Assembly (NCBI GenBank): GCA_946185225.1
Contig: CAMHIM010000001.1
Location: 805 to 64,804 of the forward strand
DNA from: an uncultured Prevotellaceae bacterium
Lineage (GTDB): Bacteria; Bacteroidota; Bacteroidia; Bacteroidales; Bacteroidaceae
Length of the DNA: 64,000 nt
Direction of reading: 5' to 3'
Below are positions 52,233 through 52,692 of the stretch, one piece after another. A model generated the notes under the pieces. It did no database searches. It was not told the DNA's origin and saw only the letters and a program-made list of their open reading frames with translations. Positions within the stretch are counted from its first letter, which is position 1; each line of letters opens with the position of its first letter. The position numbers and the translations under genes are program-made.

Positions 52233-52269
52233 AAGAAGTTGGAACCCCGTTCAGAGGCCCCAACTTCTT
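52233..52269 (-). terminator. Hairpin, diverged copy of 52602-52638
   Basis: AAGAAGTTGG / CCAACTTCTT. Confidence 0.6.
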
Positions 52270-52270
52270 G

Positions 52271-52323
52271 ACTTTTCCCGGTACTGAGTTTACTTGATAC
52301 CCAGGTCGTACTTCACCCAGTAG
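52271..52323 (-). repeat. 53-bp direct repeat duplicating the susD 3' end
   Basis: 53/53 identical to 52640-52692; encodes YWVKYDLGIK-stop on the minus strand. Confidence 0.97.
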
Positions 52324-52325
52324 TT

Positions 52326-52421
52326 TTATTTTGTTTCAATGTGTTTATAGTAATTCGCAGTTAGAATAAATGCCAGAATACCAATAAACAGTATTGCCGT
52401 CAGAAAATAAATTAGTCCCAT
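52326..52421 (-). CDS. 31-aa single-TM small protein
   Basis: Manual translation MGLIYFLTAILFIGILAFILTANYYKHIETK*, preceded by AGGAGGTG; below the track's length cut-off. Confidence 0.65.
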   Translation of the reverse strand: MGLIYFLTAILFIGILAFILTANYYKHIETK

Positions 52422-52432
52422 AAATTCACCTC

Positions 52433-52588
52433 CTATCTTATTTTAGATTTCTTTATCAAATAAAAACCAAAAGCAATGAAGAACAAGACAACATATCTGA
52501 AGAATATGTCTGTGGCGCAACTTGAGCGTCCTGAAGTTGCTTGCTCACTTTCGACTGGTTCTTTTGCTTTTTTTCTGTCATAAATCAT
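52433..52588 (-). CDS. Putative 51-aa small membrane protein (possibly a remnant)
   Basis: Manual translation MIYDRKKAKEPVESEQATSGRSSCATDIFFRYVVLFFIAFGFYLIKKSKIR*. An alternative frame starts MTEKKQK at 52581, so the frame is uncertain. Confidence 0.4.
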   Translation of the reverse strand: MIYDRKKAKEPVESEQATSGRSSCATDIFFRYVVLFFIAFGFYLIKKSKIR

Positions 52589-52590
52589 GG

Positions 52591-52638
52591 CAAAGGTAAA
52601 AAAAAAGTTGGAAACCCCAATAGTGTTTCCAACTTTTT
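52591..52638 (-). promoter_or_regulatory. PUL terminator hairpin fused to the cassette promoter
   Basis: AAAAAGTTGGAAAC/GTTTCCAACTTTTT stem (52602-52638); minus-strand TTG-N19-TACCTTTG (52598-52591). Confidence 0.65.
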
Positions 52639-52639
52639 A

Positions 52640-52692
52640 ACTTTTCCCGGTACTGAGTTTACTTGATACCCAGGTCGTACTTCACCCAGTAG
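52640..52692 (-). repeat. 53-bp direct repeat (native susD 3' end)
   Basis: Identical to 52271-52323. Confidence 0.97.

Follow-up and report, generated by a model that had tools for sequence, protein, structure and literature searches.

Our analysis concerns a small gene cassette in a polysaccharide-utilization locus of an uncultured rumen Prevotellaceae bacterium, located in a window of 64,000 nucleotides on contig CAMHIM010000001.1 of a metagenome-assembled genome (2.03 Mb in 145 contigs, 67% complete). The minus-strand gene for a SusD-like lipoprotein of 576 aa (52659..54389) is followed by this cassette, and the cassette lies between two copies of the end of that gene. The perfect direct repeat has 53 bp, with a proximal copy at 52640..52692 and a distal copy at 52271..52323 (both on the minus strand, start-to-start offset 369 bp), and it contains, read on the minus strand, the final 10 codons of ORF 52659-54389 (YWVKYDLGIK; 30 coding bases), the stop codon TAA and a 19-nt trailer. 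The proximal copy holds the functional last 10 codons, the stop (52661-52659) and the trailer of the SusD-like gene, and the distal copy is a non-coding pseudo-tail directly after the stop codon of the second cassette gene. On the coding side, the identity ends abruptly, with not one base further on the right. Past the 53-mer, a weaker similarity continues for 38 bases through a hairpin, which gives a total of 91 nt at 87%. The two copies form a mosaic, as mismatches are found at 0 of 53 positions in the gene-tail part versus 12 of 38 in the hairpin part (Fisher p = 9e-6), and the differences between the two hairpins are partly compensating changes within the stem.

The proximal hairpin (variant B, 52602..52638, minus strand) has a 14-bp stem, a folding energy of -17.2 kcal/mol (z -4.2 versus shuffled sequences) and nine U behind it, and the distal hairpin (variant A, 52233..52269, minus strand) has 16 pairs, -24.1 kcal/mol (z -5.2 versus shuffled sequences) and is followed by CGUUUUC. 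As folded, both show the GC-containing stem-loop and the U-run of an intrinsic terminator, and the terminator scan flags the distal one. Hairpin B now serves as the predicted terminator of the SusD-like gene, and hairpin A probably was the original terminator of this gene that now ends the cassette transcript. An RNA contig that covers the 3' end of the SusD-like gene extends to 52649. The original prediction had described the repeat of 53 bp at a distance of 369 bp, including its content of 10 codons, stop and trailer, and a related hairpin after each copy, and the sequence bears out both statements. Local direct repeats of at least 35 nt occur at only about a dozen loci in the whole assembly, and a repeat of 53 bp is therefore far beyond chance; we rejected a chance repeat as an explanation for the duplication. 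The 53-mer is also not a multi-copy sequence, as there are two copies at this locus and none elsewhere in the assembly.

The inserted sequence has a size of 278-316 bp and carries two small minus-strand ORFs for membrane proteins, of 51 aa and 31 aa, and nothing else. The two tiny hydrophobic ORFs that had been noticed initially thus exist, but they turned out to be one broken gene of the DUF6722 family (gene A) and its peptide partner (gene B). A TTG-N19-TACCTTTG arrangement on the minus strand had been proposed to form a promoter within the proximal hairpin variant, and this sequence is indeed present: TACCTTTG at 52591..52598 (minus strand) matches the Bacteroidetes -7 promoter box TAnnTTTG, the nine U of hairpin B run directly into it, and the TTG (52620-52618) is supplied by the hairpin loop 19 nt upstream. 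From the end of the predicted box it is 2 nt to the first ATG and 9 nt to the ATG of gene A that is supported by homology, and boxes of the TAnnTTTG type are found 4-30 nt upstream of gene A at other DUF6722 loci.

From the alignments, gene A is a predicted two-helix membrane-protein gene of the DUF6722 family that is broken in this genome by a frameshifting deletion of 136 nt. The N-terminal 17-29 residues of homologs align in one frame and the last 17-19 residues in another (52493-52442). The 5' remnant (52494..52581, minus strand, start at 52581) encodes the charged N-terminus MTEKKQKNQ... (tblastn frame -3, E 5e-4 to 2e-3), the 3' remnant (52433..52493, minus strand) encodes the last 19 codons with the second membrane helix and the basic tail, followed by the stop (tblastn frame -2, E down to 8e-10), and the conserved core of the family, about 45 codons, is missing. 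In the sheep-gut run X6, 136 further letters are present exactly between 52493 and 52494, which marks the deletion joint, and 88 + 136 + 1 bases give a single frame of about 94 codons that matches the length of the homologs. The 51-aa ORF is therefore a chimera that results from the deletion inside the longer gene A. A contig from an RNA library of a third study (run X15) covers 52401-52567 without any difference and without the flanks of this organism. As this contig matches fully, the deletion allele is not an assembly error, and the contig also suggests that the cassette is transcribed, RNA contigs as such showing presence only. In our own genome, no match to the DUF6722 model (PF20482) above the gathering score was found, because the domain core of gene A is deleted, and gene A can be regarded as a broken member of the family.

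Gene B (52326..52421, minus strand) is an intact gene for a single-helix membrane peptide of 31 aa, the conserved partner of DUF6722, and its closest relative is found in cassette L073. A Shine-Dalgarno-like GGAGGTG (52428..52434, minus strand) lies 6 nt upstream of its ATG, and GGAGG(T) also occurs 6-9 nt before the start of gene B in the diverged cassettes L008, L010, L057 and L073. In several diverged cassettes, this motif is spelled by the last two Arg codons of gene A and its stop (AGG AGG TGA); in our genome gene A stops earlier, yet the motif is retained. Bacteroidia reportedly make little use of Shine-Dalgarno pairing, which renders the conservation of GGAGG(T) unusual. When 400 genomes of the genus were searched at the DNA level, no close copy of the insert was found. 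One match, 75 nt at 80% in genome G358, led to a homologous gene pair that encodes a 94-aa protein (P0001) and, 4 bases later, a 35-aa hydrophobic peptide behind GGAGG. P0001 matches the Pfam model of DUF6722 with 43.5 bits at a cut-off of 27.

Independent samples contain the same arrangement. In a search with sampled words of 52000-52900 against DNA runs, at least 82% of the words were present in 13 runs from cattle, sheep and other gut samples, and any part of this region was present in 19 rows from 14 studies. For the sheep-gut run X6, which belongs to a separate study, contigs assembled at k=31 break exactly at the borders of the 53-mer, and the 53-mer, which forms a contig of its own, has a depth of 50, as compared to 26.5 for the insert, 29.6 for the downstream flank and 19.5 for the SusD-like gene. 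One contig of this run spans from the interior of the distal copy through the entire insert into the proximal copy and thus crosses both junctions, and the two hairpins are the same as in our genome. The duplication is real and present in two independent samples, and essentially all cells of the X6 sheep-gut population carry the insert. Since the sheep strain shares both hairpins, the repeat was already a mosaic when the 136-nt deletion occurred.

Comparison with related species indicates that the cassette is a foreign insertion specific to this lineage. In L026, the same pair of neighboring genes is separated by a spacer of 98 nt that has one gene tail, one hairpin and no cassette, the orthologs being 57% (SusD-like protein) and 38% (downstream protein) identical. 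In L004, also from a related species, the same gene pair has a spacer of about 141 nt with one gene tail and no cassette. The corresponding spacer in our genome has 617 nt. A fixed and ancient presence of the insert throughout the genus had been named as an observation that would speak against an insertion, and the cassette is missing at this site from these two syntenic relatives. The GC content of the insert is 0.32, as compared to 0.58 and 0.53 for the flanking genes, and the cassette is present as a single copy in its genome. A miniature inverted-repeat transposable element, an insertion sequence or a non-autonomous transposon was rejected on the basis of the single copy and the lack of terminal inverted repeats at the insert ends. 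We also detected no integrase or other recombinase gene and no mobility domains within the insert and about 6 kb around it.

The same kind of scar is found at other loci that contain DUF6722 genes. In a first set, direct repeats of 37-190 nt enclose the cassette at 8 of 32 loci, with L043, L046 (51 nt, 100%), L047 (109 nt, 95%), L048 (58 nt, 100%) and L054 (about 190 nt, 89%) as strong cases. In an independent second set, 14 of 80 loci are flanked by direct repeats with a minimum length of 35 nt and a minimum identity of 80%, as compared to 6 of 134 controls in which the same interval was shifted by 1.3 kb (Fisher p 0.003). Pooled, 22 of 112 Bacteroidales DUF6722 loci lie between direct repeats of 35-250 bp versus the 6 of 134 controls (p = 2e-4); as the loci are related to each other, these Fisher p-values overstate the significance. 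Side by side, the flanking repeats of 16 related cassettes are unrelated sequences of 46-245 bp. They correspond to the upstream gene's 3' end, sometimes together with its terminator, at L054, L073, L084 and our locus, to the terminator alone at L046, L043 and L130, and to a promoter that ends at the -7 box at L048, L071 and L105. No motif shared at the repeat borders or insert ends was seen by eye in these 16 cases, for which no formal motif search was made.

Some of the loci have a more complex history. L048 (G373:C9, 557-2167) contains two different cassettes in tandem, a retropepsin-like pair, as judged by translation, followed by DUF6722 and its peptide. The same promoter block of ~60 nt precedes each cassette, with a third copy before a resident ATPase-like gene, and the same terminator block of 65 nt follows each of the two cassettes. 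At L105, the promoter inside the repeat is homologous to the cassette promoters of L084 and L087. L105 and L048 may indicate that parts of earlier repeats travel with the cassettes. Internal deletions of cassettes also occurred in other lineages (L124, L127, L138), L138 lacking 146 nt and 136 nt relative to L124 and L127. Beside DUF6722 genes, L068 has a 151-aa ORF that appears IS200-like by eye between 109-nt repeats (1263-2087), and L094 has a 309-aa ORF between 48-nt repeats of 98% identity (707-1745). Past the right-hand repeat of L046 (G299:C11), a stretch of ~230 nt recurs at 8 or more places of the genome with 79-87% identity and may be a small dispersed repeat.

In the genome that carries our cassette, four of the dozen or so places where repeats reach 35 nt bracket small gene units of low GC content, our cassette being one of them. 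Within the window, a toxin-antitoxin-type pair of MNT (NTP_transf_2) and HEPN genes with its own promoter (38603-39514; GC 0.42 versus 0.55-0.60 in the flanks) lies between 64-nt direct repeats (62/64) whose start falls into the terminator T-run of an OmpA-family gene. On contig C27 (2969-5332, L140), genes for a Dcm C-5 cytosine methylase and a Bpu10I-like endonuclease, 2.3 kb in total, are placed between 44-nt repeats (43/44), and on contig C31 (13260-13635, L141), direct repeats of 38 nt, each with a hairpin, surround 300 bp with an ORF of 95 aa that has no Pfam match. The left junction of the MNT-HEPN unit shows short sequences that echo the ends of ompA and of HEPN, and about five tandem 22-bp units follow directly after its right-hand repeat (39514-39623). 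Contig C3 (54737-55635) contains regular perfect repeats of 36 nt with a spacing of about 66 nt that resemble a CRISPR array.

How did the cassette arrive behind the SusD-like gene? We consider it likely, at a probability of about 0.68, that it entered by a recombinase-free insertion with long target duplication, which was reportedly described by Nobusato and colleagues in 2000 (Gene 259:99) for restriction-modification gene units. A target stretch of at least 53 bp, probably the 91 bp that comprise the 10 codons, stop, trailer and hairpin, would have been copied on entry, so that the SusD-like gene would keep its end and a terminator, namely hairpin B. Transcription of the cassette would depend on its own TAnnTTTG box, whose beginning lies within the U-run of hairpin B, and the cassette transcript would end at the second copy with the pseudo-tail and hairpin A. 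The duplication itself may go back to an illegitimate joining of the two cassette ends to two target points that are staggered relative to each other, so that a short stretch would be duplicated in tandem and the cassette trapped where the copies meet. As the repeats are variable and specific for each locus, and as the ends are not conserved, such an illegitimate staggered joining is favored over the action of a site-specific enzyme. The mosaic could have been generated later, either by homologous recombination with the allele of another strain or by selection on hairpin B as the -33 element of the promoter, and a unit flanked by repeats could loop out and spread by ordinary homologous recombination. 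Later, the 136-nt deletion inactivated gene A in this strain, leaving only the peptide gene intact.

Several points weigh against this scenario. A duplication in one step does not predict the mosaic, which calls for a second event: since the distal gene tail does not code for protein, one duplication with subsequent neutral drift would not be expected to leave just this part perfect. We know of no experimental demonstration of the mechanism of insertion with long target duplication. An empty site was not obtained from any strain of the same species; the empty sites come only from other species, at identities of 57-71% (57% protein, 71% DNA). For the cassettes of L046 and L054, closer empty sites were sought in a distant sample of the genus, and none was found. 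As to the recurrence of the scar, the shifted control is not zero (4.5%), the loci are akin, and two of the repeats in the first set are short and only 80-84% alike. The repeat of L105 contains the cassette's own promoter, and not every repeat in the family is thus pure target sequence.

Other explanations have to be measured against the same data. An assembly artefact, in which two strain variants were joined in tandem across a shared 53-mer, would be conceivable in an incomplete and fragmented assembly of this type, and 53 bp is near to common k-mer sizes. However, the X6 contigs at k=31 contain the junction from the end of gene B into the repeat, the depth of the repeat is twice that of the flanks and the insert, the insert being as deep as the flanks, and in an assembly graph built from an empty and a filled allele, no edge would lead from the cassette back into the repeat; we attach practically no probability to this explanation. 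The small genes could also be old residents, with the gene tail and the terminator duplicated locally by slippage or unequal exchange. The presence of the insert in all 13 best DNA runs and its flank-level depth in X6 fit to this idea, as the insert looks fixed in the sampled population, but the two syntenic relatives without insert, the GC content of 0.32 versus 0.53-0.58 and the fact that this gene pair turns up in numerous unrelated surroundings as well as on viral contigs make an old residence very unlikely.

The original prediction had regarded the locus as an att-like insertion that spares gene and terminator. The gene-sparing insertion with terminators is confirmed by our analysis, and the att-like nature is not, as there is no integrase and no reused core. 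Elements that integrate into the 3' ends of genes do bring a replacement end, and it would agree with the remnant of such an element, entered with its integrase at the 53-bp core and later reduced to about 300 bp, that the core is free of mismatches and differences set in beyond it. Neither in the insert nor near it is there an integrase, though, and there is no room for a deleted interior, with the U-run adjoining the promoter box, genes A and B being coupled like those of all related cassettes, and the stop of gene B abutting the core. A site-specific system would reuse one core, and the att type is therefore disfavored, since the repeats of the related cassettes are unrelated and very different in length, and the core of our cassette occurs at this locus only; we consider a reduced element of this kind improbable, and a tRNA/att site as such was rejected. 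A less remote but still unlikely alternative is a Campbell-type entry, in which a small circle with the tail of the SusD-like gene and hairpin B, for example looped out of a repeat-flanked copy in another strain, integrates by one crossover within the 53 bp, a length that suffices for RecA-type recombination. This would explain the mosaic directly, with perfect identity at the crossover and one hairpin each from donor and recipient. The looping-out of repeat-flanked units is expected according to the discussion by Furuta et al. (2010; PMC2853133). Yet such an entry accounts for the spread within a species and not for the first repeat-flanked copy, which makes it a complement to the insertion with long target duplication, and no circle junction or donor was seen. 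No exact match was obtained in IMG/VR with two exact patterns for near-identical donors, nor in JGI metagenome contigs with an exact 29-nt core pattern, and a protein-guided scan of the latter gave one locus, L026, from a different species.

The family to which the cassette belongs is widespread and patchy in its distribution. Of the 400 genomes searched within the genus, 118 contain DUF6722, in 1-5 copies per genome, as compared to 0 of 14 control genomes, and to judge by record titles, members are present in Prevotella, Bacteroides, Phocaeicola, Parabacteroides and further Bacteroidales. Behind the DUF6722 gene, a coupled hydrophobic ORF (22-60 aa) is present at 30 of the 32 loci of the genus and at 71 of the 80 loci from named genomes (101/112). 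Three viral contigs of IMG/VR contain DUF6722; on one of them, a contig of 30 kb (L059, 3953-4300), DUF6722 and the peptide gene lie between genes that look HU-like and HicB-like when their translations are judged by eye. A tblastn search with a full-length DUF6722 homolog gave no match in the INPHARED phages or the PLSDB plasmids, PHROGs gave at best weak hits of unknown function (E = 0.006), none of them significant, PADLOC gave none, and no paper that names DUF6722 was found in the searched library. We favor the idea, which we call a guess, that the pair of DUF6722 and peptide is a selfish or phage-exclusion membrane module, because the scar is shared with toxin-antitoxin and restriction-modification pairs and because the pair occurs on phage contigs.

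Taken further, and tentatively, with chances that we would put somewhat below even, the DUF6722-peptide pairs may be selfish mini-cassettes of Bacteroidales and their phages that move without a recombinase by long target duplication and gain promoters and terminators of earlier targets when they loop out. If this is true, then, as the pairs carry no nuclease, a 25-year-old insertion route would be driven by the host and open to any small addictive or protective cargo, be it toxin-antitoxin genes, restriction-modification genes or membrane peptides, rather than being a property of restriction enzymes. To our knowledge, publications on this route, which date back to 2000, deal with restriction-modification genes only, and the cassette would represent a new class of cargo. 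Roughly a fifth of this cargo's relatives in the Bacteroidales carry the scar, and in the same genome it is also seen with toxin-antitoxin and restriction-modification pairs, which points to a general host-side acquisition of small accessory genes in gut and rumen Bacteroidales that leaves the target gene and its terminator unbroken. The DUF6722 cassette could serve as a compact and frequent model cargo for studies of the insertion route, and our analysis flags a widespread and so far unannotated pair of micro-proteins inside polysaccharide-utilization loci.

As to the surroundings of the cassette, the SusD-like gene has a lipobox-type N-terminus and lies directly downstream of a gene for a SusC-like TonB-dependent receptor of 1045 aa (54447-57584) with Plug and CarboxypepD_reg domains. 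On the other side of the insert, the flanking gene (49321..52041, minus strand) encodes a protein of 906 aa with CHB_HEX_C/Fn3_assoc domains, and the neighbors as a whole are the SusC-like receptor, the CHB_HEX_C protein, an M23 peptidase, RecG and one protein without a match. The 576-aa protein gave no match to SusD_RagB or SusD-like models (Pfam at E <= 0.01, NCBIfam at E <= 1) and no sequence match in the PDB, and its nearest clusters in a protein-language-model atlas (Atlas) are RagB/SusD, with scores of 0.98-0.99 that can be taken as a lead only. The label "SusD-like" is reasonable for what would be a divergent member. Its 57%-identical ortholog in L026 is likewise without a SusD model or structure match, and the two proteins may represent a divergent SusD clade.

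Among known systems, phage morons are self-contained units of promoter, gene and terminator that are located between genes, and they are not defined by long target duplications. Our cassette resembles them as an autonomous small unit of deviating base composition between genes that are adjacent in relatives, and its own relatives occur on phage contigs, but it resides in a chromosomal polysaccharide-utilization locus and not in a prophage. The tRNA-targeting elements of Bacteroides such as NBU1 are integrative and have their att sites in the 3' ends of genes. The direct repeats at both ends and the restored 3' end of the target are shared with these att elements, whereas our insert has only about 300 bp and no integrase, and related cassettes reuse no single core. 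With respect to the DUF6722 family itself, the remnants of gene A align to the ends of the members and gene B is the usual coupled partner, the copy described here being broken and devoid of its core.

The closest resemblance in structure is to the insertions with long target duplication. In Furuta et al. (2010; PMC2853133), a study from the group of Kobayashi that coined their name, these are defined as restriction-modification units without a mobility gene between repeats of more than 30 bp that are present as a single copy at the empty site. The repeat length is described there as variable, with the start or stop codon often spanned, so that the target gene survives, and the authors suggest that the cargo contributes by breaking DNA and that units between repeats are amplified and might be set free. 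Our cassette shares with them that a short foreign unit without a mobility gene lies between repeats of more than 30 bp, that length and sequence of the repeats vary from event to event, and that the repeat covers the stop codon of the target and leaves the gene whole. The repeat is 53 bp when perfect and 91 bp at 87%, the insert is below 20 kb, mobility genes are absent and the repeat is not multi-copy, and a single copy at the empty site is seen in L026 and L004, both of which are other species (57% protein and 71% DNA identity). The cargo is different, as it is not a restriction-modification unit but a DUF6722 remnant and a 31-aa peptide, that is, two small membrane proteins without a nuclease, and the repeat copies are mosaic. 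Because the cargo encodes no nuclease, the published idea of a breakage caused by the cargo is inapplicable here. The host is a member of the Bacteroidales, which are not among the groups listed in the accessible part of the article, and the very same genome offers, with its Dcm and Bpu10I-like pair between 44-nt repeats, a classical restriction-modification case of this type of insertion.

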